Source of the DNA: Psammoneis japonica
Lineage: Eukaryota
DNA: 36,278 nt
Assembly: GCA_008632985.1 (NCBI GenBank)
Contig: QPGO01000377.1
Location: 1 to 36,278, forward strand
Direction of reading: 5' to 3'
How positions within the stretch are numbered: the first letter of the stretch is position 1; each line of letters begins with the position of its first letter. The notes below the pieces were generated by a model that worked only from the letters and a program-made list of their open reading frames with translations, had not been told where the DNA came from and searched no databases. The translations under genes and the position numbers were made by a program. Shown here piece by piece: positions 8,210 to 36,278 of the stretch.

Positions 8210-8850
8210 ATTGCACACATTGACTTGTCTTCAAATCACAAACAAGAGCAACAATGCTGTCCCATCACAAATTGTTTTCTTCTCATTTCCTCATGAGCCA
8301 CATGGGTTGCAGTGTGCTCACAATGCCATGAAGGATTCACTTGTTCAAATGTTGTTGGCATGTGACAAAGAGAAGCTGACATGCCAAAGTGTGCCACTCA
8401 ATGATGGGATTTGGATTTAGGGCATGAGGTGATTTCTTCTTCACAGACACTCATCCTCTGATCTGAAATCATGAGCTGATGCGGGCAAAACATGGGCTGA
8501 AAAAGTTGGGGATGACCCCCCTCAAGGCAGATTGCACACATTTAACTTGTCTTCAAATCACAAACAAGAGCAACAATGCTGTCTTGTCACAAATCATTTT
8601 CTTCTCATTTCCTCATGAGCCACATGGGTTGCAAAGTGTGCTTGCAATGCCATGAAGGATTCACTTGTTCAAATGTTGGCATGTGACAAAGAGAAGCTGA
8701 CATGCCAATGTGTGCCACTCAATGATGAAATTGGATTTTGGGCATGAGGTGATTTCTTCTTCACAGACGCTCATCCTCTGATCTGAAATCATGAGCTGAT
8801 GTGGGCAAAACATGAGCTGAAAAAGTTGGGGATGACCCCCCTCAAGGCAG
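8210..8850 (+). repeat. Tandem duplication, ~320 bp x2, within decayed TE-like sequence
   Basis: 8210-8530 and 8531-8850 both start ATTGCACACATT and end CTCAAGGCAG; many of the differences are CA<->TG or CG->CA/TG. Confidence 0.95.
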
Positions 8851-10499: not shown

Positions 10500-13400
10500 C
10501 TGCACTGTTTTACTGGTCATCGGATGACACTGTTTGTTGCTGCTGCTGCCAAATTCTGCACCATCTGCTGCAGCACCAGATTCCATTCATGCAACATCAC
10601 ACTTCCATCATCTTTTTTGTTTCTTCTGGAGATGCTCCCTGTCTGCAACTGTTGGTCACTGCAAGGAATGCAATGTGCCACCCCGCAGCACCCATTGTTT
10701 TTCACATCACACATGCAACCCGCTGCATGTTTTGCAAGCTTTGCATTTGAAACCAACAAGCTCCTGGGATGTCTCACACTGTTTGAAGTGTGATAACTTG
10801 GTGTGGTTGTGCACCTTGCACTCCATGTAGCATGTGATTCTTCACCTGTCCTTTGGGTTGGTGCAGCCAAAGCACGGTGTTTTTTGTTGTCCAACTGCAA
10901 TGAGCATGTCTTGTGGCACTTGTTGCCACAGTTGACACAAGGTGTTGCTCCATTCTCCAATGTTTCCTTGCATGCGCAGCATGTTCATTACTCCTGTTCT
11001 TGGTCAGTGTCCTTTTCAGCCTCTTCCTCTTCAACTCTTTACCAACACTCCTCCACCAACTCTTTGCCAATGTTTTCTTCTGGCTCCCACATTTTTTGGT
11101 TTGTGACCCAAAGTACGAGATGCTTGTTCTGGCGCTTCCTGCATCTGAGCAATGCCTTGACTGACCGTTGATCCTCCTCAAGTTCCTCCAGCTTGTTGCC
11201 TGTTTCATTGGTGGCTCTTTCCTTGGTGGCATTTGCATCGTCACCTGTTTTGTCAGTGGCATTCGACAGTTGTGTGTCATTGTCTTTGCTCATTTTGCCA
11301 TTTGATTTTTTCTTGCCGGTGCCACTGCCTACATTAATTGTGTTTGCTTTCTCACAAGTCCCTTCTTTACTTTTTTTGTTCGTCATTTGCTTTTTGGATC
11401 CCTTCCCTTTCTTGGAGCTCTTCTTGTTTCCCTTCTTTCTCTTCTTCTCCCTTGCTTTCACAGCCAGCAACCCCCGCCCAACAGTGCCCTCCATGATCAT
11501 GTTGTTGAACTGTCTCCTTTCTGCCACGATGTAGTTGACTGTTGCAGTTGGATTCTTTTGGATGTTCTGTGAAGAGTTGGTTGAGTTCCTCTTTGTTAAA
11601 CAAGTGGTCGGGTCCCTGCTCTTCTTTGGTTTCTTCTGAGTCGGTGCCTTCATTTGTTGTGTGGTCTCCCATTGCATTCTTCTTTCCCCGTGTCAATTCT
11701 GCCCTTGCTTCCTTTGTTGCCTGTGAAACTTGTTCAAATTCTGGTCAGAGAAGGACACGACAAGACAAAAACTGCATGGCACACTCACCTCTTGAATGTC
11801 ATGCTGCATCTCTGCCTGCCTTGTTTCTGGTTCTCTGTTTCAAAGCAAATCCTGGTGTTGACCTTGATCCTCCTTTCTGTCCATGTTTTCAGCATGGTCC
11901 CCTGTGCCTCCAACACCTGCTTCCTCCCACGCCCATGCTCTCTCCAACCCTTGGTCATCAGCACTCCCAGAAAATGATCCTGTCTCATGTTCCACACCCT
12001 CGCTGTCACTGTCATTGATTTCTGTTGGAACTGTGATTGAATCTCAGTGTGCCACCCCATCCGTTTTGGTGTTGCCATTGTTTCTTCTGGCTTGATCACT
12101 GTTCCAACATTGGTGTGCTGTCCAGTCGTTGTTTGCAGGATGACTTGATGTTGGAACAGTGTTTGCATCTCTGGGTGCTGCCCACTTGTTGTGTGCAGGA
12201 CCATGCAGTGTTGGAACAGTGTTCAAATCTCGGCGTGCTGTCCAGTCGTTGTTGGCAGGACCCTGCAGTGTTGGAATGGTGTTTGAATCTTGGTGCACTG
12301 TCCAGCAGTTGTTTGTCAGACAACTTGGTGTTGGAACATTGGTTGAATCTTGGGGCACTGTCCACTCCTTCTCAGTGGGATGACTCACTCTTGGAGTGGT
12401 GTTTGAGTCTTGGCATGCCATCTGCTCCTTGGCAGGGTAACCCAGTCCTCCACTGGCAATCCGCAGTTTCAATCTGTCACTGCCAAAGTCCAAGGCCTCT
12501 TCTACCTGTCTTGCAGCATTTGCTTCAAAAATGACTGTCTTGAACTGGCCAAATTTGATGCCACCGTCCTTGCAATGTGGCATCTTTGGCAGAATGGTGC
12601 AGTCTACATTGTGCTCTCTTGGCAACCTTGAAACATGCTTTGGTGACTTCATGACCATTTTCTCAAAGTGGAAAACTGCAACAGTTCTCCTTTCTAGGGT
12701 CATGTCAACCCATTTGGTGCTGTTCCTGATGCTGAGGCAGTGTCCACAACAGTGGGTTTTCAGAGAATCATTCAGTTCCCTTGTCTTGCGTGTCTTTTCT
12801 GCTGCAACAATTTTCGTGCCACAACTGTGCTTCTTTCTGTGGGGAACAAAGCCATCTGAATGCTTGTAGCCATGTTCCCTCCAAGTGACTTTCTCCATGT
12901 TCAACAACCAATCGGATGTGGAAGGCAGCACTCCATCCCACCCACATTGGTCTCTCGGCTGTCCATTTTGCGGCATCTCAGAACTTGCTCTCATTTTCTC
13001 TCATGCCACAAGCTGCTGACACCACCAACAGCATTGCCTCAATGTTGTTAATGGCATCCTTCTTTATCTTCTTCATGAAAGAGTCATGCTTCTTCTTGAC
13101 AGATTCCCTGTCAGTCTCGTCAGCCACCTTTGTGGAGCTTGCTCCATGGCATTTCTTGACAAGATGAGTGATGTGATCTTCCATTGCTGCCTTGCTTTGT
13201 ATGTTGTCATGGTCAAACAGCAGAGTGATGCTGTGGTCTGTTTTTCCTCTCTGAACATCCAGTGCCTCTTGATGGCAACCTTGCCATTGCTGCTGTTTCC
13301 TCCAAAGGTGCTCGTGATGTCCCAGAGAGCCCGTGCCATGGTTGCCAGACTCATTTTGTTCCTTCTTGTGGGTGCAACAGCAACATCTCCAACGTGCTCT

Positions 13401-14300: not shown

Positions 14301-15770
14301 CAAAAGTGCCGAATTAGTTAGAGTTGAAGCATCAACCATTCATGGCTGAAGAATGGGCACACATGAGACCTGTGGCATGGTGGGTCCGAGACTGTGGCAA
14401 TGACCTTGTCCCTGATAAAGACCAAGAAGTCAAGGACCGTCTGTGTGGCAATGTCAAGGACCATCTGTGCGGCAATGAACCCAACAACCTAGCCTGAGTT
14501 GCTTGATTGTAAGATTAATTTGTACAGTTCTTTACACTAATGGGTTTAGCAAAATCTGACCACAAAGCACCAATGGGGGAGTGGGGCTGGTGGACACCAA
14601 ATTGAGGTGACAACTTGTCTTCACAGACAACCCCGGTTGTTGGGAAGGCTGTGGTTTGTGCAGCAGAATCACTGGCCATTCGACGCAAACTGTAAATTAA
14701 CAATTATCAACTGCTTCATTGGTTGGGAAGGTTAGCCACATCTTTGTCCAAAATTGCAAGGACAAAATGGGTGTACCGTCCCTCTCCAGAAAAATCAATC
14801 TGGTCATCAAACAATCTTGTTGCATGACACACACACCCAACAAATTGTTTCAAATGCTCTTGATGTAGTCGCTCTTTCTGGAACACATCATCCTCCCCCA
14901 CAAACAGATCCATGGTCCAGCAGTTGATTACTTCTGGAATCAAATCAAAGAGCTCCATCTCTCTGCAATGGAATGAATGTGATCTCAATGCTGGATGAAC
15001 TCCACATTGGAACAATTCCACTAACTTCTTTGCTTCAAAAAGGATGCCATTGATGTCCATGACTAGTCCATGACAAGTGCCCAGGAGGAAGGTCTCCTTG
15101 GTCTTGACAAGCTTCACAAGGGGGCTGCATGCCCCATTGTTGTCCATGCCACATGTGGGCAAGCCAGATCTTGACTTGCACCCAATGTCTTGGATGTCAT
15201 CCTTGCTGAAGACCAACTGCCACTTGTCCCCCAACAAACTAGCAATGCAATGATCCCCAATGCACTTCTCTGCACTGTGTCATTGATGAGGACAGTGTGT
15301 TCTGCCTTGCCTTGAGGCTCGGCATCCAAAAATTTGCCAACAGTCTTTTGTCTTTGTCGCTTCATGGGCTCACAACTTCACATTTGTGTGCAACTCTCTA
15401 ATCATCATGGATGGAGAACATCTTTGTAATGGTGAACACTTGCTTCTGTTGTCTCCTCACTCCACCCGGCCATGTCTTCATGGACTTCTGACATTGTCTT
15501 GTGCCTGCAATGCCAGAGCTGCCTCCAAAGGCCCAAGTCTGGTGGGTGCCCCCAATGAGACAGTGGTGCATAGTCAGAGTCTTCTTCCTTCATCACCACG
15601 AGATCATCCAACACATGTTGTAGTTGGCAATGTCAAGCCATGCTTGGCCAACCGCACTTGCATTGTGGCCCTCACGGTGATTGCCCTGTGAGTTTCCGTG
15701 AGGGGCCACATTCCTGTTGGAATTGTTGCCTTTAAAAAGAGACACTGAGACATTCAATGTAAACAGTTCA

Positions 15771-15972
15771 GCAAAGTGATCCAGTTTTTGGGCCATTTCC
15801 TTCCCAACCAATTCCTTCACAAACTCCCATTGTTGTCTCAAACGTTCCTGCGTGCCAACATGCAAATTAAAGCAAAGTGATCCAGTTTTTGGGCCATTTG
15901 CTTTCCAACCAATTCCTTTGCAAACTCCCATTGTTTTTTCAAACGTTCCGGCATGCCAACATGCAAATTAGA
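15771..15972 (+). repeat. Tandem duplication, 101 bp x2
   Basis: GCAAAGTGATCCAGTTTTTGGGCCATTT... begins at 15771 and 15872. Confidence 0.95.
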
Positions 15973-16188
15973 GGACTTGTGTCCATGGCACATGATGATC
16001 TGGGGTCATTCTGACGACGTAAAAGTGCGTGGATTCCCAAGAGAGATTCGAAAGTCCTCGGAAAGTTGCAGCTGTTGGCCTTGTTGCATGCCTTTGCACT
16101 TTTAGGAGCATAACCCCAAGACTCACTGAGCACACTGTGCAATGGATCCACCTTTTTGTCTTTGAAATGCTGGTGAAGATGTGGCAGC

Positions 16189-16336
16189 AAAAAAAGACAG
16201 ATCTAAATTTAAAGTGCTATCACTCCTTTGCCAGCTATGCCGGCACTGGCTGACCCACACCCCCAGCACACAGTTAAGTGTGGCAGGAGCTTGCACGGGA
16301 TTAGCCGGAATTGGTGTCACCAGAAGGTGACACCCC
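16189..16336 (-). ncRNA. Conserved structured 3'-terminal RNA module, copy in the SINE-like element
   Basis: 24-nt perfect identity (16214-16237 vs 31220-31243) within a ~150-nt homology. Stems GGUGUCACC/GGUGACACC, CCACAC/GUGUGG and CUCCU-GCC/GGC-AA-AGGAG. Ends in a U-run. Confidence 0.55.
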
Positions 16337-16518
16337 ACCAAGATAACTGAAAAGGACTGATTCACATGAGGGATTTATTGCATGCTTGTTGATGACAGCC
16401 ACAGAAGGCACACCACAACTGCAACAGACAATTGCGTTCGGATAGGTTCTTAAAATAGTCCACAAAAGGAGCCTTGAAGGTAAGACGAGCAGGTCATCAG
16501 AGAAAATATTCATGGCAT

Positions 16519-16933
16519 GTAGAAACAATAATGTGTCTTTCATAGAAAAGCCGATGGGAGCAGCAAACCAAAGACAATCAAATGGCACCACAGGATGACT
16601 CGCATTCTTGCCGAAAAGGGCCGCAACAGAAGCAGCAGCACATTCACCACAAAGAGTGAAGTACTTGATTGCACGGTAGAGAAAAAGAATGCTGAAGACC
16701 GATTGGCAAGAAGTGACAGGTAAATTGTCAGTGGTAACACGTAGAAACAACACCAGATCTTGCGTAGAAGAACCGATGGGAGTAGCAAATTGACGACAAT
16801 CAAATGACTCCGAAGGACAACTGACATTCTTGCTGAAACGGGCCGCAACAGAATTAGCACTTGCACCACAAAGAGTGAAGGACTGGATTGCACGGTAAGG
16901 AAAGGAAGTAGCATTGAAGACCAATTGGCAAGG
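16519..16933. repeat. Internal diverged tandem repeat (~222 bp x2) of the SINE-like element
   Basis: GTAGAAACAA...CCGATGGGAG...GGGCCGCAACAGAA...CACCACAAAGAGTGAAG...TGAAGACC.ATTGGCAAG begins at 16519 and 16741. Confidence 0.9.
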
Positions 16934-16965
16934 ATAAAAGTAGGCCAGAGAAGTGACATGTAGAT

Positions 16966-17216
16966 TCATCGTGGGACCCCACAAATACGGAGGGACCCGC
17001 AACCCGGAAATGTGTAGAGTTCTACGTGAATGTATGGGGACTGTTCACGTAGGTTTTGTACCAGAGCTATCTCGCGAACTAGGCGTTTTTTCGGATTTTT
17101 GTCGTAGAAACTGTACCAGTTTTGCGTATGTAGGCTACATGTTTCAGTACCACATACAAAAATTCGCGTAGAGCTCTACAGGAGGGTCCCTCCGTATTTG
17201 TGGGGTCTCACGATGA
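16966..17216. mobile_element. 251-bp MITE with 33-bp TIRs and 4-bp TSD (AGAT)
   Basis: TIR TCATCGTGRGACCCCACAAATACGGAGGGACCC with 1 mismatch. AGAT at 16962-16965 and 17217-17220. Empty site CATGT-AGAT-CGTCAGC in the paralog at 23086-23101. Subterminal inverted repeat TGTAGAGYTCTACGYGAAT. Confidence 0.95.
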
Positions 17217-18784
17217 AGATCGTCAGCAGCATCTGCGGATCCGCGTAGAATTTGTACTAGAACCTGTGTAGAAAATTTTCTGAGACAACAGAAAATTACG
17301 AGAAATAACAACCAGCATACGAACCAACAGGCCGCAACACTCGTCGTTTTCCACTGATGAACTTTGCTCATCATGCTGTAATGAGGATGTACCATTGGTA
17401 AACGGGGACAAAATGGGCTTGTTGGAGCCAAAACAACACCGTCTGAGAATGGCAACATCAGCACGAGAACTCGCGTAGTAGAAACACACGCAGGAGGTTG
17501 CTAGTGGGAGCTTACGTAAAAGAGTGAAGATGTGGCAGCAGTTTTCCCATAAGATCATAAAGGCAGTAAGTGGCAGGCATTTCTCCATCTATCATCATTT
17601 TGGTGGCAGTAAACAGACAAATGGGCAAGGTTGGATCAGCTTGGTCAGGTTCACAGTCACTCTCTCTTCAACGGCAGATAACTGGAATCCCACGTAAGCT
17701 TTCATTTTGAATGAAACAGTTGAATTTGTCATTGCTGTGGTGACCCTGCATTGCTTTTTTCAACCACCATGCAATGTGGACACTTGTTTCAGGCTTTTCA
17801 AGTCTGATGACACAGGCAACCATTTTGGGTCCTGCAAAACAAGATTTGTTTAATGCACTTGTTGTTAACTCTGTCAATTTCCTTCAGTGCAATGAGTTTC
17901 ATCCCACCCATGGATAAGTCAGTTGGCATTGCAAAGCTGCTCCAGAATTGCCTGTTTTTTCCTTTGTAATTCGTTCGTGGATACCCTGCCAGGGTTTGCC
18001 AGGCATTTCTGAAGGACATGGACGGTCCTTTCCTCCATGGAAGTGAAAGTGTCGTCACAATCAGAGCACAAAAAATGTTGGCATTGTTACCTTCTGGGGA
18101 GCACGGCAGAGGCACCCTTGGCTTGATCACGGATGGGTCCATGTTGGAGTGCCCATCATCAAACAAGACATGGGCATTTATTGTGGCATTGTCGATGTCA
18201 GCAAACTTTCTTTTGCGGAGAGTAGATGGGCGTAGCTGGTGGGATTTGGAGAAGAAACATTGTGGGTAACTATCCGCTTCATTGTTCAATGTGGTTTTGT
18301 GAGACTCTTGCAGACCCAATTGCCACTGGGCAAGGCAGTGGCTGAAATGCCAAATCCTGCAGGGTCAAGTGGCTTGCTTTGTTTTGGATGAGAATGCATG
18401 TTTTGGGTTTTTATTGCATTCGTGGAAGGGAATTTTCTCTGCAACTTAATGAACCTAATCTGAGTAACATTGCCCAAGGTAGAGAGGTCAGAAGTAAGTC
18501 AGCCAAGTGGAACACCAATTTTGGCAAGAACGCCATTTGACATGATTTCCCAGCTCAGGAATTCCTTGAACGATTCGGTGTTGTCATTGTCCGAGCAATG
18601 ACGCTTCCACAGATCAGTGCCAGCAAACAATTAAACCTCCAATGCATCCTCGTGGGTGACATGCAACCAATGGCATTAGACTTTGGAAAGATGTTTTCGA
18701 AGACACATGTTGCTGTGGATAGAGTGAGACAGTGGACCATGGCGACTCAGGAAAGGGTTTTGGCTTGTGGTCAGCCAGGAGAAG

Positions 18785-20481: not shown

Positions 20482-20941
20482 CATAAGCAGTGATCACCTC
20501 CATTTTGTGGGGAAAAACCGTTAAATAATTTAGTGGATGGATGTGTTTCAATGATCATATCTCTCCCTCAAACACCATCATCCGAATAAACCCTCAGTGT
20601 CTTACCCCCCTTTGATGTATGAGGAATTCGCTTCTGCTGTTCCTTTTCTCCAAAAATGCAATTTTTGAGACCATTAAATAATTTAGTGGACACATGTTTC
20701 AATGATCATATTTCTCCCTCAAACACTGTCATCCGAACAAACCCTCAGTGTCTTACCCCCCTTTTGACACACAAGAAATTTGCTTCTGCTGTTCCTTTTC
20801 TTTGAAAATGTGATTTGAGAAAAAAGCCGTATGTTCGGATGACAGTGTTTGAGGGAGAGATACTTTGATCATTGAAACACATCTATCCACTAAATTATTT
20901 AACGGTTTTTTCCCACATAATGGAGGTGATTACTGCTTATG
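20482..20941. mobile_element. 460-bp foldback/MITE with ~105-bp TIRs and an internal 153-bp tandem duplication
   Basis: CATAAGCAGTGATCACCTCCATT...CATCCGAA (20482-20585) is the reverse complement of ~20834-20941. 20518-20670 is duplicated at 20671-20820. TA dinucleotides at both ends are compatible with a TA target duplication. Confidence 0.9.
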
Positions 20942-22260: not shown

Positions 22261-22652
22261 TCCATTTCAGCAAGCAAGTGGGAATGTCTGTTGTGTGATG
22301 GGCTTGTTGACAGAAATTGAAGATGACTGGGTGGAAGAAAGCAATAACTCCTTACTGCTGTCTAAATAGCAGATATGAGTCTCCGTGCAGAGACCGTTAC
22401 AGGAGCCGAAAGACTGGCGTTGTGATGTTGGTGCTACTGTTGTTATTCTTGTGAGCCGAGTGGCTCGAAAGCAAACTACATCACGTGACGCACGCGGAAC
22501 TAAGAGCACACATAATTGTGTGTGATAAACTAAAATCCTGTTCAAATCCTGTCACTTGTGTTCATGCACTGCAAGCTCATGATGGGGATGAACAACACTG
22601 GATGAGGACATGGCGGGGGTTGGTTTGGTGGTCATGGCAATGGGGGCACCAA

Positions 22653-22928
22653 CTCCTCACAGATTAACTTGGTCCTGTCACAGATTAACTTTTTTTATGG
22701 AATCTTGCTCAGTCACACCGCTGCCTTTAATCATCCCAAACTGGATGTTTGCTAAAAGTCTCACTCCCTGGCCCCTAACCTAAACCCTAAACCCTAACCC
22801 TGACCATGCAAAACTGTTTTTTCTAAATGCTGGGATGTAGAAGAGTCACAAATTCGTGTATGTTGTTTTAGTCATGGATTCCTATTTTTGGCTTAATCTG
22901 TGACAGGCACAAATTAATCTGTCAGGGG
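22653..22928. mobile_element. ~275-bp MITE-like element with bipartite TIRs and internal telomere-like repeats
   Basis: Left CCTCACAGATTAACTTGGTCCTGTCACAGATTAA is inversely repeated as TTAATCTGTGACAGGCACAAATTAATCTGTCAGG. CCCTAA/CCCTAAA units at 22773-22803. Confidence 0.75.
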
Positions 22929-22939
22929 TATTTTTTCTC

Positions 22940-23400
22940 CCAAGGACAACTAACATTCTTGCTGAAAAGGGCCGCAACAGAAGCAGCACTTTCACCACAA
23001 AGAGTGAAGGACTTGATTGCACAGTGAGGAAAAGAAGCAGTGTTGAAGACTGATTGGCAAGGATAAAAGCAGTCTGGAGATGTGACATGTAGATCGTCAG
23101 CAGCATCTGCGGATCCACGTAGAATTTGTACTAGAACCTGTGTAGAATATTTTCTGGACAACAGAAAATTAGGAGAAATAACAACCAGCATACGAACCAA
23201 CAGGCCGCGACACTCGTCGTTGTCCACTGATGAACATTGCTCATCATGCTGTAATAAGGATGTACGATTGGTAAACGTGGACAGAATGGGTTTGTTGGAG
23301 CCAAATCAACACCGTCTGAGAAAGGCGACATCATCAGTGCAAGAAGGTATGTAGAAACCCACGTAGAAGCTGAGGGCGTGTAGCTCCTGACATCAAAAAG
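22940..23400 (-). mobile_element. Truncated second copy (5' portion) of the SINE-like element
   Basis: Aligns with 16811-16965 plus 17221-17523 without the MITE. Homology ends near the same terminus as the full copy. Confidence 0.9.
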
Positions 23401-30286: not shown

Positions 30287-31195
30287 ATGTCGTTGTTATA
30301 CTCCACCTTCCACGTTGTGTCTCGTCTCCCTCCAATTCCGATAGGACTCGATCGCAAAAACAACAAAATCTCTCGGCAATGTGCGCATTTCCAACCAGGT
30401 CAGTGTGTGAGCAAGAGGACTTTGACACACAAGAAGGTCTCTTCTATGGGATTATCTCCAACACACATCAATCATTTGTCCGTACTCTCGACACGGATGG
30501 ATTTCTCAACACACTTCCTGCTGGCCAAGCTTTGGTAATCCGGCCAAGACCGCTTTATGACTGTTCAGTGGTTTACAATGACAAACATCTGTCCTCCACA
30601 TTGAGGGAGGTGGCAGAGGAATTGTCAGTGCAGACAGCCAGATGCAGAGATGCTGATGCTAGGAGAAAATCTCTTGCCTGGAAAAGAAAGCACCAACACC
30701 ACGCCAGTGTCCAGGAAAGTAGCGTATCCACTGATGGGATTGGCTGTGCTTCTGTTGGTCCCGGTGTGGAGGTGCTTTCCATCGAATCACAGAAGGAAAT
30801 GTCAGCAGAGTTTCAATTGTACTTAAGCAGATTCGGACAGTCAAAGTCGATCCATCCATCGTTGTTTGGCACTTCAAGCATGGAAGACCTACAACTATCC
30901 AACCAAGGACAATGACATTACCACTTCCATTTAAAAAAGTGATTGTGAAGCACCTGTTTTCGGTGCCGTCAACACCATCCAACAATTGCCAGAAGGAGCA
31001 GGTGTAGACGTTTGTTGGGACAAGCCACTCTTTGCTGACCAAGCGGAGTTGGACCACCACAGTTTTGGAATGTGCGATGACTTAACAGATGCTGCCAAAA
31101 CACCCACTACTGAGAATGTCGCTGTCGACAATAATGTGTTGGTCATTGGCATTGTTTTTGGTGATGAGACCACCGACGTCTCTGCCAAGGAATGC
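30287..31195 (+). pseudogene. Frameshifted ORF with possible Tudor/SH3-like N-terminal barrel, truncated by the LINE
   Basis: ORFs 30287-30538, 30379-30915 and 30986 onward join through frameshifts. The FQPGQCV...LFYGIISN...VRTLDTDG pattern suggests a small beta-barrel. The last frame runs into the LINE terminus at 31196. Confidence 0.35.
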
Positions 31196-31341
31196 AAAAA
31201 AACCAAATCTATGTTTGCAGTGCTATCACTCCTTTGCCAGCTAAGCCGGCGCCGGCTAACCCACACTTCCAGTGCACCATTACGTGTGGCAGAAGCTCAT
31301 TGGGATCAGCCGGACGGGGCGTCACAGTGAGATGACGCCCA
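31196..31341 (-). ncRNA. Conserved structured 3'-terminal RNA module of the LINE
   Basis: Hairpin GGGCGUCA/UGACGCCC, then CCGGCUGAUCCC...CUUCUGCCACAC...GUGUGGGUUAGCCGGCGCCGGCUUAGCUGGCAAAGGAGUGAUAGCAC...U7. Homologous to 16189-16336. Confidence 0.55.
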
Positions 31342-34300
31342 TCCAAAGTAGCAAGCGATGGAGCAAGTGCCACGAAGTGCTTCACGCTTCACCTTCTTTA
31401 GGCTTTCTTTTAGATGTGGTTTTACCACAGCAACCCAATTCATAATCAGTAATGTAGAGTGGGAAATGTGATTGTCAACTGAATCCAGCAGCACCTCTCT
31501 GTCTTTAGCCAAGTGATCCTGTCATTTGTTGTAAATGGCCGTGAGCTCAGCTTCTGCCTGATGGCGTAAAGATGATTTCCTCGAATCTGAGTCGTGACCA
31601 TGAACCTCTTTATTGTGTTCTTCCCACAGTTCCCACCAGGACTTCCAAATGTGAGTTCCTGTCTGTACTCCCCAAACAGGAGGGGGTTGATTCTCTTTCC
31701 TATATTTCTCCAACAGACCCGTCTCATGAAGATGTATCTCCTGAAACACATTCCAAAGGGTGGAGCACCATCCATTGAAAACTTGTCGCCATCCTATCTC
31801 TGACTGGGCTTTCCACAGCGTTCTCAGCATCGGGGTAATGTCAGATTCATACTGCATCTCACCTCTTGGCCATGTTTCAAGTGAAGTCAGCAGCAGATCG
31901 CTTAGAGGTGGCATTGTGTCAATTTTGTCACAGTATTTTCGTAAGCCCTGTAGGAATTTGCAATGCCAGGCCTCATTGGCAGGACACCGTAAAACATGGT
32001 CTCAATCCTCCATAGGGCATTCGCACGTAAGGCAATGTTGTGGCGGTACAGGGTTGTACCGATGAGCAATCTTGTTTGTTGTAAGGAGCTTGTGGATGAG
32101 TTTAACCATTGAGACATGTTTCTTGGAGTGCCTGCACACCAATGTTGCATGGACCTTCCAGTCGATCTTTTCTGTGATAGATTCATCCCAATCATTTCTT
32201 TCCCGAACATATGATGCTAAGAGAGCGGGAGCCGTAGCGGCACATCTGACTGTGTGGATTTCATTCCTGCAGTGACCGTTCCATCAGTGAGGCACAGGTG
32301 TGATTGGCCAATGGGGAAAGGGAAGCACCTCGGTTGTGTCTGAGTCATATTGTCCCTGGCATCATCCTGCCAACTTGTCTGCACGTACGTTGACTTGTCC
32401 ACTCAGTGGGAGGGTCTCAACTGGAGCCTGTCTATCCTGGTGTCCTTTTACCCAAGCTATGGACAGAGCTTGCCCGGGGGAAGAAGGATTTAGAGCCTGA
32501 GAAATGGCTTCAGGCATTAAGTGTATTTCATTGATGACATTCCAATTGGATGAAAGAACATTGGCATCGTGCTGTCGTAGATAAAAGTCTCGGTCGGAAT
32601 GCTCCTGTGCCGACGGATCAATGGAAGGACGGCTATAAGACAATCTAGAAAGGACTTGGACCAAGGCCTTGTTATCACACCAGTTGTCGACACCTTCTTC
32701 ATATGTTGACATCTTGCAGAACTCAATCAAACGATAGATGAACCAAATCAGGGAAAGAAAACCATACGCCTTGGCTCAATAGGATGATGGCGAACGACCA
32801 AACACCTGACCAGCACAATCCACTGAGGGTCTGCCATTGAATGTAATAGTCCATCCGAAGGTGGCGTCATGATGAAGTACGGATCTGTCACTCCCCGCCA
32901 CGAGGCGACTTGATACAAAATAGTCCACTAGTTCATAAAGGGAATGTGGAAATCAATGTCTGAAAAGAGAGAGGACTCCCAGGGAGGCAATGCTTGTGAG
33001 CGGTCTGCGAATAGGTCGGGTAAGGGTGGAGTTGTTTCAACCGAGAGTTTCGGGTGATGAGGAATGTATTTCCATCTGCCATCTTCTATGGAGACAATCT
33101 CAATGGGGAATGATGAGTCAGAGGGGGAGGGAACCATTTCGATTTGGTGAATCAACGTAGCGATAGTGTCCTGGACCGGAAAAATGTCAAATCCTGATGG
33201 AGATCAAACGTATAAGTATGACTCTTCGGGAGACCAATGCGCTGAACATTGCATCCTCATTTTGGAAGGGGGCACTAGCCAGTCTCCTAAGGGAGCTTTC
33301 AGATGAACTGAGTCTTGATGGCACAACAATCCACATAACCGTATCCAAGGATTTTATGCATGGTGGCAAGGTTTAATCTGTTCGACGTTGTTGAGGGTAC
33401 CAACACTGCTAAGGTACGTAGGATCACCATAAACTTTGGACTCATCTAAGAAGCATCCGTCCGCCAGAGTGATATCCGAGACTGTCAGGACCCGAAGATG
33501 CAAGCGGCAATAGTTGATCCATTGGATCTCTCTAGAAGAGAATGCTTGTGACTCCAGAGCAACATCCATTAAAAACTGATTGTTGACTCTTTGCAAGGGG
33601 AGGACACCGTCTTGGGATAATGTAATGTATCCTCCAATGTGCTGTAGAAATGACCGAACGGATGCAAACCACAGCGACTCATTATGTGGATGAGGAGCAT
33701 TGACATCTCTGAGGAAGCTAACCCCCGTGCCTAGATGCAGCTGATTCCATGCAATGGCAATGTGAACCACGGCGCATGGTTGGTCGTCTTGTGTAAGATG
33801 CTGTGCACCTCGAGAATGTTTCAACAGCTGTTGCATTTGGGCAATGCCCTGCTCAACATCGAAGCATCGAAATCCACCGCCACCGCAAGATTGCAGGCTG
33901 TATAGAATCAGACGCTTAGCATTCCTGTTGTAACTGCATTTGGCAAACACAACTCTCATAGCACGTTGCTGCATTTGTTTCAACACTTTGGAAGCGAAGT
34001 GAGAGTTAGCGAGAACAAAAGACATCGACGGCAAACAGCACGCATGGCAGCATCTTCATGATTCGGTCCGGTCTAGAGGGACAGCCCGAATGAATAATGC
34101 TCCTCCATCACTCTTGGCTTGGAGCACTTGTTGCTGTTTCTTTAACGTCCTGGCTGGGGAAGGGCAGTGTCCCAGTGTTTTATGTGGAGCAAAGGGGGAC
34201 AGCTGCTTGCCATGTCTGGAAGTGGAGCGATCGGCTGAGAAAATTTCCACTGACACATCCTGATTATACGGTCGGAGGCTCGGTTTGCCAAATTCTGAGA

Positions 34301-36278
34301 AGTCCCAATCTACTGCATGAAAAGAACACTTGGGTAGTTCTAGTTCATGTCCACTTGCGTGGAGCAAGTCGCACCAGAGTTGGTTATCGTGCTGCAATTT
34401 GGGAGCTAAATCTTCTGCAGAAGGCTGAGGAGATGCCCTGATGTCATTCACTTGCTTGGACGTGTCGTCTACACATCCTCTTGTGTAGATGTTGAGCTGA
34501 TGACACCTATCTGGTGATTCGAAGAATGCGCCATTAGCCTTGGAGTCAAAGATATCAAACAGAATGCTGCATAAATTGTTCCAGTAAAAAGGGGAGTTGT
34601 CACTGCCTTGACCAGCAATGTAGATGGGGAATTCTGCATTGTGTGAGTGCGATTCCTCAGAGAGACCTAGCAAGGTGAGCAACCAGTAGCTAGGGTTCAT
34701 CGTCGGAGATGCTCAATCAGTAGAGCCCTAGCTTCAGTCAATCCGGACGTGGACTACTCGCTGTCAAGAATAAGATCTGCCATGATGGCATTGCCTTCAT
34801 ACCCCAGGTCTATCGACAAAGGAGGAACGGTCAGAGGAGTGCCGTGAGCCTGTCCAAAATGGTTTTGATTCCGTGCTGTCAGGGCTGCTGTGACATCTTG
34901 TGGAGCATCTGTTGTTTCCCAGTTTTCACATTTCTTGGGATCCTCTAGAGGATGAGCCGGGACCTGTACTTTGCTGACACTGGAACCATCCTTGTCTTCA
35001 AATGCATTGATTTTTCGGAATGCTCGAACCATCTCTTCTGCACATTGTATGTTCCAAAGAATCTTTGCCTCTTCAGTCGCTGCCTTGGCACCCTCTAAAT
35101 CTCCAGTTCTGCGATCCGAGCGTCACGTTCGCGTTCACAGTGATGTAGACTGTCGCGAGCAACTTTTTTACATTCGGACTGGGCACATTGGAGAGCATTC
35201 TGACATTCCTCCACAGCAGTCAGGAGAAGGAACGACTCCTTTAATTTGCATTTTTTGTGAACAATTGATTCCACAAAGGTAGTCCTGTTTTTAAACATGG
35301 AAAGAAGGCAAGACAGAATGAAGACTTTGCCATGCAGGTCTACGAGTTTTTGAGACCACTCTGGTTCATGATAACGCCTGCAGTGTTTTGCTGCTGAGAT
35401 ACAAAATTGTGTTATATCGCAGTCCAACCTTTCTGCAAGGGCATGGTCCGGCTCCTCTGATGCAAGGAGAGCTGCACTTCTATCTAACACATTTTGACCA
35501 TTGAGCATTGGACCGATGGCTTCGAGACAAGTCGTGACATGCTTCGGTGACTTTGCGAGGAGGGTTTGATGGGAGGGGCGAGGGAGCTCTGCGGAAGAAT
35601 TGCCAAACAACAGCTCTGTATCAAAGTCCACACAGCAGGTGCGGTGGTCCAAGGAAATTCTATATCTGGAGGATTCGCACCCACATGTTGTGACAGCGTG
35701 GAGAGCTCCTGAGGTGGCAAGGACATAATCAAGTTGACGGGATCTGTGGAAATAGGCAGCGAACTCAAGGTCCTGTATTTTGTTGTGCATCACGTTGGAA
35801 AGCTTGAATCGCATTGCTGAGCGGGCCAGTGAGTCAGTGTCATTTCGAAAATCAGTGTTAAAGTCACCAAACAAAACAACTTCCTGATTATGATCATCCA
35901 GGAATGTTTTCAATGTCCGGAAGAGATCATGACAAAACGCATGACGTGGCTCCAGTCTTGCTCGACCTTGCTGGTGCAATGAGTTAACTTGCTGGGCGTA
36001 GGCTGTAGTTTTACCTGTGGTGGAGGAATTGTTAGAGCACACATGGCAGCACGAGATAAACATGACTTGTTTCCCTTGTTTGCCATCAAACATTTGTGTG
36101 GACCATCTTCCCAGTGGATCTAGCATCTTGGTGTGGTGGCGAGAAGCAACTGAATTGCATGACATGATTGCAGTGCCACCAGGCTTGTGTGGAGTTGTAA
36201 AGGGGATGGATGATGCCAAGAAGGTGACCCGGCCGTGGTGGAGGGTGTTTTGGATGACAGAGCGGCAAGGTTGTGCAA
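31196..36278 (-). mobile_element. Non-LTR retrotransposon (APE endonuclease + RT + RNase H + C-terminal Cys/His motif; Ambal-like), degenerate, 5' part beyond the window
   Basis: APE: PGGTAI, DPLGRWS, LFGDFN, QLDYVL, LDHR (35095-36219). RT: GQGSDNSP, GCVDDT, LELPKC, KTLG (34056-34700), then GGGGFR. RNase H: GSD.SV..TFGW, S(YR)A.AYG, WCDNKALV, WVKGHQD, NVRADKLA (~32360-32910). CLTC...E..DHVLRCP near 31980-32035. Stop at 31306, then a short 3' UTR. Confidence 0.92.

Follow-up and report, generated by a model that had tools for sequence, protein, structure and literature searches.

Tails shared between LINEs and their parasites are classic evidence that a reverse transcriptase (RT) recognises its template by RNA structure. 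To our knowledge, most documented cases of such sharing come from animals and plants. Elements of the UnaL2/ZfL2 type terminate in a short tandem repeat, and the 3' UTR of R2 has a multi-helix fold. As described in an excerpt of PMC4176376, the ORF2 protein of stringent-type LINEs binds a stem-loop of the 3' tail, and partner non-autonomous elements share this tail. The pairs named in excerpts of two sources are UnaL2/UnaSINE1 of the eel and ZfL2-1/ZfL2-2 of the zebrafish (PMC4176376, PMC1636434). The RT of R2, according to the same excerpt, requires the R2 3' UTR (PMC4176376), and an excerpt of PMC8825457 includes both simple repeats and poly T among the tails of SINEs. Our literature search turned up no paper that deals with the tails of diatom LINEs or SINEs; RTE-like non-LTR elements are mentioned for T. 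pseudonana in an excerpt of PMC2806351.

We analysed a 36,278-nt stretch of DNA from Psammoneis japonica (contig QPGO01000377.1; hereafter the window), in which one structured module occurs twice on the minus strand: at the 3' end of a LINE (copy B, LINE B) and at the 3' end of an unrelated, non-autonomous element (copy A, element A). We consider it probable that the module is a 3' tail of the stringent LINE type, which would serve as the signal for RT recognition and for the initiation of target-primed reverse transcription with a start in the U-run, and which element A would have borrowed. The whole module is ~150 nt long, of which the 3' UTR makes up ~100 nt, and in copy B it is built as follows:

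31196..31346, minus strand: module copy B, running from the final ~13 codons of the LINE ORF through its stop codon and a structured 3' UTR to a T-run (184 bits with the covariance model built from the two copies)
31317..31340, minus strand: hairpin H0 (GGGCGUCA / UGACGCCC), inside the last ORF codons; folds in both copies
31306..31308, minus strand: ORF stop codon TGA, in the 5' strand of the basal helix (CCGGCUGAUCC)
31252..31313, minus strand: long irregular arm, present in the MFE folds of both copies and in the consensus fold
Within the long arm: basal helix, CCGGCU.. with ..AGCCGG
Within the long arm: middle helix H2, GCUUCUG with UGGAAGU in copy B (GCUYCUG with UGGRRGU over both copies)
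Within the long arm: H3, a short apical hairpin with a variable loop
31236..31250, minus strand: hairpin H4, GCCGGC-UUA-GCUGGC in copy B (GCCGGC-WUA-GCUGGC over both copies)
31219..31243, minus strand: block of 25 nt identical in the two copies, covering the 3' strand of H4, an AAAGG linker and H5
31219-31230, minus strand: small hairpin H5, AGUG-AUAG-CACU
31196..31218, minus strand: A/U-rich linker leading into a run of 7 T (31202-31196), with which the element ends

The two copies, 31346..31190 (B) and 16341..16183 (A), both on the minus strand, were aligned with ~77% identity (alignment A3). A repeat search within the window gave 81% identity between 16190-16291 and 31196-31297, and blastn of the window against itself gave 76.9% over 156 nt between 16187-16341 and 31194-31346 (E 1e-24). 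Beyond the limits of the module, the loci of A and B do not align, either upstream or downstream. The covariance model built from the pair found just copies A and B and no third place in the 36-kb window, the next best hit scoring 12.8 bits. Thus, two otherwise unrelated elements do share the module, as the preliminary description of this DNA had stated, and the identical block that it had given as 24 nt is 25 nt long (TAGCTGGCAAAGGAGTGATAGCACT; 31243..31219 in copy B and 16237..16213 in copy A, minus strand, A3). A run of 7 T closes both copies. The stop codon occupies the same column in both, within CCGGCTRA, as TGA in copy B (31308-31306) and as TAA in copy A (16303-16301), and therefore lies, as had also been claimed, inside the strand formerly drawn as P1a, which belongs to our basal helix.

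A single 1-nt indel, at column 47 of A3, separates the copies. In the one frame that is open in both, differences are spread 7/7/5 over the codon positions, with 4 synonymous against 11 non-synonymous codons, which rules out conservation of the module at the protein level and bears out the earlier argument from the indel; over the final 13 codons of the upstream ORFs, the differences are 6/4/3 by codon position, with 2 synonymous and 7 non-synonymous codons. Exact and near-exact pattern scans for further copies of the module found none in viral contigs, none and then two chance matches in metagenome contigs, and two chance matches but nothing real in prokaryote genome contigs. A protein search with a spurious ORF that spans the module returned no candidate.

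Upstream of copy B lies the body of the LINE:

31345..36278, minus strand: body of LINE B, a dead copy with its 5' end and its TSD (target-site duplication) beyond the window; it encodes an endonuclease of the APE type, RNase H, a zinc finger and, of the RT, the C-terminal half

With P0006, a metagenome LINE protein of 2050 aa, tblastn matched residues 152-682 to 36261..34700 and residues 894-1995 to 34712..31345. From this match over 36261..31345 it follows that copy B forms the end of a LINE that has endonuclease, RT, RNase H and zinc-finger domains. We call this LINE copy dead because ~210 N-terminal residues of the RT are absent from it and because it has an in-frame stop at 34056-34058. 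The homology at the protein level ends at '...YFG', directly before H0, and the ORF runs for 12 more codons to the TGA in CCGGCUGA; the tail, with the ORF stop at 31308-31306 and the end of the element at 31196, is found at the extreme 3' end of this endonuclease/RT element.

Other searches dealt with the affiliation of this LINE. In the degenerate ORFs upstream of copy B, Exo_endo_phos was matched with E 0.004, under the Pfam cut-off. A 218-aa ORF (34059-34712) led in a protein search to one metagenome protein cluster, through P0001 (1950 aa, 37% identity, E 3.5e-33), a cluster-mate of P0006 that has Exo_endo_phos and zf-RVT in Pfam. As we read its sequence, P0001 also appears to carry RT-like motifs and an RNase H-like 'VKGHQDD...DADSLAG'. 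The full-length relatives, P0001-P0009, are single ORFs of 1950-2050 aa from metagenomes, in which Pfam at E up to 0.01 detected just Exo_endo_phos and zf-RVT and no RT. Searching the sequences of the PDB with P0001 produced no relevant match, no relatives of the P0001 locus were found among viral contigs, and a protein search with the C-terminal ORF of the LINE found none. The ESM Atlas neighbours of the RT part of P0001 are eukaryotic, with Bacillariophyta the commonest, and one cluster has RVT_1 on 27% of its members. The LINE lineage appears to be very divergent, and we take its link to diatoms, suggested by these neighbours, as a lead only.

Copy A belongs to an element of a different kind, with the following parts:

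16190..16341, minus strand: module copy A (189 bits with the covariance model)
16190..17523, minus strand: element A, non-autonomous, 1334 nt, bounded by a putative target-site duplication (TSD) and with the module and its T-run at the 3' end
16173..16189, minus strand: 3' copy of the putative TSD, 17 nt, TGCTGCCACATCTTCAC, adjoining the T-run and starting at its last T
17524..17540, minus strand: 5' copy of the putative TSD, 17 nt, exact

We read the 17-nt repeat as a TSD, which would bound a 1334-nt element inserted by target-primed reverse transcription; by our arithmetic, an exact match of 17 nt has a probability of ~5e-7 by chance. Homology to LINE proteins was not found in 16190-17523 (tblastn with P0006), so that the same tail is present on a TSD-flanked element without RT, of which one example was examined. 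ARAGORN found no tRNA genes in element A, and Rfam on 16100-17650 at E up to 10 gave no relevant match and no head of the tRNA, 5S or 7SL type. Lacking a recognisable Pol III head, element A is not a canonical SINE. For the 219-aa part of its ORF that the window encodes, no homologue was found among 1.84 billion representative proteins. The TSD of A encloses the module and the T-run, and the ORF of the LINE ends inside the module; we therefore rejected the idea that the module is an insertion target shared by the two elements. Also set aside were a tRNA-like origin of the module, no tRNA having been found, and a Helitron-like 3' hairpin, seen by eye, whose GC palindrome GCCGGCGCCGGC is not kept in copy A.

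The body of element A has a history of its own. When a MITE-like insertion of 251 nt (16966-17216) is omitted, its ORF (16304-17523, minus strand) has ~330 codons and ends at the TAA of the module. The insertion is absent from the paralogue at 23087-23110, has 34-nt terminal inverted repeats (16965-16998 versus 17217-17184, 97%) and is flanked by repeated ATCT; together with one repeat it amounts to 255 nt, and the ORF is kept in frame. The ORF also contains a tandem duplication of 74 codons (16516-16710 and 16738-16932, 78%). A second copy of the 5' ~450 nt of element A, here called A' (22937-23400, minus strand; match 23369..22937, 87-90% identity), starts at about the same 5' position as A, has a 1-nt deletion and does not carry the module. 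A' breaks off at 22937, at the start of a stretch enclosed by inverted repeats (22652-22688 versus 22929-22893, 86%); an interstitial telomere-like run, GGTTAGGGTTTAGGGTTTAGGTTAGGGG, lies in that stretch at ~22770-22805 on the minus strand. Elsewhere, the window has tandem repeats at 8210-8850 (2 x ~321 nt, 93%), 12094-12413 (5 x 60 nt), 15770-15973 (2 x 101 nt, 91%) and 20482-20941 (2 x ~152 nt, plus an inverted copy at 20834-20941).

The abundance of the module was assessed with the contigs of one DNA run, 226 of which aligned to 30950-31650 at a likeness of at least 80%; two other runs, X2 and X3, yielded no aligned contigs. Depth was summed over contigs, and is thus not a copy number but a sign of a multi-copy core alone. 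It reached 4737, 8394 and 6941 in the core bins (31214-31285), against 217-700 in the bins of the 3' flank, 337-1444 in those of the LINE body and 37 for the one near-identical contig, a pile-up of about 10-fold or more on 31214-31285. The core, that is the last ~90 nt, is strongly multi-copy and more abundant than either body. At position 31225, in the loop of H5, the majority letter in the aligned contigs differs. Beyond 31196 (n=11) and 31197 (n=6), contigs pass into unlike and mutually disagreeing sequence (agreement 0.43-0.49), and this divergence at the end of the T-run resembles insertion junctions. Another group of contigs follows the module as far as 31219, beyond which its A/T-rich linker is a different one and its T-run is longer. 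Moreover, at least three groups of 8-12 contigs each diverge upstream of 31272-31278, with loose ends that retain GGCAG, the complement of CUGCC; the agreement with their consensus is 0.57-0.67, a hint that several subfamilies with different apical loops share the tail. The DNA beyond the 3' end of LINE B (30981-31196) is itself repeated, in several contigs of ~81-88% that stop at 31192 or 31196. LINE B thus seems to have inserted into a further repeat; the contigs in question are possibly empty-site paralogues.

Folded alone, each copy gives the same nested series, consisting of H0, the long arm (basal helix, H2 and apical hairpin), H4 and H5. On A3, 73 of the 74 cells of this nested model are paired, with three one-sided changes and two compensatory pairs, one in H0 (C-G to U-A, columns 10-27) and one in H2 (U-A to C-G, columns 55-80). 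For two sequences, the covariation measures observed are not significant, being reached by 139 of 500 shuffles. The consensus fold has an energy of -46.8 kcal/mol, the 300 column-shuffled alignments one of -26.4 +/- 3.6 (0/300 as low; z = -5.6), and without H0 it is -32.8 against -20.9 +/- 3.4 (2/300 as low). These were mononucleotide shuffles, in which dinucleotide content is not kept. A structure conservation index of 0.77-0.81 was obtained, and the sequences taken singly gave weak z-scores (-1.6 and -1.5) for the region that follows H0. Differences between the copies occur in 8 of 74 paired columns versus 27 of 71 unpaired ones (Fisher p = 1e-4), although this test is biased, the structure having come from the very sequences compared. 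Among the variable places listed in the module, all six (31225, 31279, 31283, 31298, 31326 and 31327) lie in unpaired columns. H2 is rich in G-U pairs. All six pairs of H4 are invariant between the copies and hence speak neither for nor against this helix. Measured by its consensus energy against the column shuffles, the fold common to the two copies is better than chance.

This fold differs from the one proposed before. The upstream hairpin, which was said to be kept with different sequence, is in fact the same hairpin in the same register (H0): six of the eight stem pairs claimed are identical in both copies, one is the compensatory C-G to U-A pair, and the outermost is broken in copy A. The former model of helices P1, P2 and P3 pairs 59 of 62 cells, and its sole compensatory change is that in H0. 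In copy A, two breaks interrupt P1 as it was drawn. Nor did the proposal of two exclusive folds survive the comparison, for the alternative pairing of P1b with the downstream strand exists in copy B only (14/20 cells), both substitutions in copy A breaking it. For the crossing helix P2, pairing is possible in both copies (up to 10 pairs with a 2-nt bulge), but a conserved bulged helix of at least 10 pairs is found in 27% of 300 column shuffles and P2 shows no compensatory change.

Three functions had been offered for the module, namely an RT-recognition element, a translation-coupled switch and a self-cleaving RNA; we found no support for the latter two. The RT-recognition element fits, because copy B ends a LINE, copy A a TSD-flanked element of non-LINE type, and because the two copies share a fold and have a multi-copy core. 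From these observations, and from the 3' boundary, we infer that the RT binds the fold and that reverse transcription starts in the U-run. In the mechanism that we propose, the cis-acting 3' end of the LINE would consist of the last codons, the stop codon, the ~100-nt 3' UTR of nested hairpins, the A/U-rich linker and the oligo-U. The folded tail would be recognised, most likely by the endonuclease-RT protein of the LINE; target-primed reverse transcription would begin at the U-run, in the manner of stringent-type LINEs, and any RNA bearing the tail could be copied into the genome. Recognition of the tail would explain why the unrelated, enzyme-less element A carries it, why A has a TSD, and why the ~90-nt core is commoner than the body of the LINE.

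Some of the evidence is awkward for this proposal and would also suit an account by descent only, in which element A is a chimeric retrocopy formed by a template switch from the LINE tail, and the likeness of the copies reflects origin and uneven decay, no fold being recognised. The covariation is reached by 139 of the 500 shuffles and so is not significant for two sequences; element A has no recognisable head of the Pol III type and its ORF is an orphan, and the second copy of its body (23369..22937) lacks the module. Element A may thus be a one-off chimeric retrocopy rather than a tail-dependent family. Yet the core is far commoner than either body, and the at least three contig groups that keep GGCAG suggest many subfamilies sharing the tail; moreover, substitutions avoid the stems, the common fold is much stabler than those of shuffled alignments, and A and A' begin at about the same 5' position, as members of one family would. 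We therefore regard an origin by descent only as unlikely. The oligo-U terminus, atypical of LINEs, likewise speaks against a LINE tail. Another explanation takes the T-run for a Pol III terminator and the core for an RNA gene with an internal promoter or for a SINE transcription unit. Seven T do follow a compact, structured and highly repeated core of ~90 nt, and SINE tails of poly T exist (PMC8825457, excerpt). An origin in a Pol III small RNA is nevertheless highly improbable: no tRNA was found, nor any Rfam match at E up to 10 to tRNA, 5S, 7SL, U6 or another family, Pol III promoters are situated in the 5' head and not, like the module, at the 3' end of an element, and the ORF of the LINE extends into the module.

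Two further alternatives turn on the crossing helix. In one, P2a (CUYCUGCC) would pair across the arm with GGCAAAGGAG, and a terminating ribosome would refold the tail so that the protein loads in cis. The complementarity in both copies (10 pairs and a 2-nt bulge), the location of the 3' strand of P2 within the 25-nt invariant block, the stop codon in the basal helix of both copies and the G-U-rich nature of H2, the nested competitor, are all in keeping with such a pseudoknot or switch. It is, however, very unlikely, given that helices of the size of P2 occur in 27% of the 300 shuffles, that P2 has one one-sided and zero compensatory changes and excludes H4 and H5, and that the pairing of the alternative three-way fold is disrupted in copy A. 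The nested model is also lower in nearest-neighbour energy, with -47.5 (B) and -44.5 (A) kcal/mol against -33.8 (B) and -18.1 (A) for H0, P1 and P3 together, to which P2 adds -4.8 and -7.7. We give equally little credence to its most specific form, in which the invariant GGCAAAGGAG would pair either locally (H4/H5) or with CUYCUGCC, and a ribosome at the stop codon would melt the basal helix, giving a pseudoknot bound by the nascent protein. If true, this termination-coupled switch would account mechanistically for the cis-preference of a stringent LINE whose primer site is oligo-U. The other alternative, a self-cleaving ribozyme, HDV-like or other, that would process the RNA of the element, we find barely credible. 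In its favour there is the impression, recorded in the preliminary description, of the strand order of an HDV-type nested double pseudoknot, and nothing else. HDV-like ribozymes cleave at their own 5' edge, and here the tail would be cut off the element. Those of R2 and L1Tc are placed at the 5' end in excerpts of PMC3774820 and PMC3185411. The crossing helix is not above chance, and Rfam 15 gave no match at the gathering score over the whole window; at E up to 10, the regions near both copies gave noise only (isrA, E 6.8; ZEB2_AS1_1 on the opposite strand, E 0.82). Membership of the described ribozyme families, the HDV-like ones included, is thereby removed.

If the module is a LINE tail, as we think probable, the same logic of a shared tail would operate in a very divergent LINE lineage. 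A well-bounded RNA of ~150 nt with a natural partner would provide material for questions of template recognition, of the oligo-U terminus and of the stop codon in a helix, and the module could be a practical annotation marker for an abundant repeat family. The arrangement of a LINE tail shared with a partner is well known, and this is not a new kind of system. What is unusual is the oligo-U terminus for a LINE, the stop codon within the basal helix, common to the LINE and its parasite, and the large tail of several hairpins.

These features can be set against those of the described systems. With the HDV-like ribozymes of R2 and L1Tc, the module has in common that it is a structured RNA of a non-LTR retrotransposon; it differs from them in lying at the 3' rather than the 5' end, in having no Rfam match and in a crossing helix at chance level. 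Like the SINEs with poly T tails, element A is non-autonomous, ends in a T-run and has a TSD, but it is 1334 nt long and has no tRNA-, 5S- or 7SL-type head. The comparison with R2 concerns the architecture of the tail. Both have a structured, multi-helix 3' UTR longer than 100 nt, which serves in R2, and is proposed here to serve, as the signal for RT recognition and initiation, with no need of poly(A). However, R2 has a restriction-like endonuclease and a site in the 28S rDNA, whereas the endonuclease here is of the APE type and the one insertion that could be resolved lies outside rDNA; R2 also has no relation to the module by sequence or in Rfam.

The closest counterparts are the UnaL2 and ZfL2 systems. 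Unlike their tails, for which the excerpts describe a single stem-loop, the module is ~150 nt long with five helical elements. Its terminus is a U-run, its basal helix encloses the stop codon, and the partner is a 1.3-kb element without a Pol III head. The LINE is very divergent, with an RT missed by Pfam at E up to 0.01. In other respects the likeness is close: as in UnaL2/UnaSINE1 and ZfL2-1/ZfL2-2, the tail is located at the extreme 3' end of a LINE and also on an unrelated non-autonomous element, and, as in those systems, it combines stem-loops, here predicted ones, with a short repetitive terminus, and the mobilised copy is flanked by a TSD.
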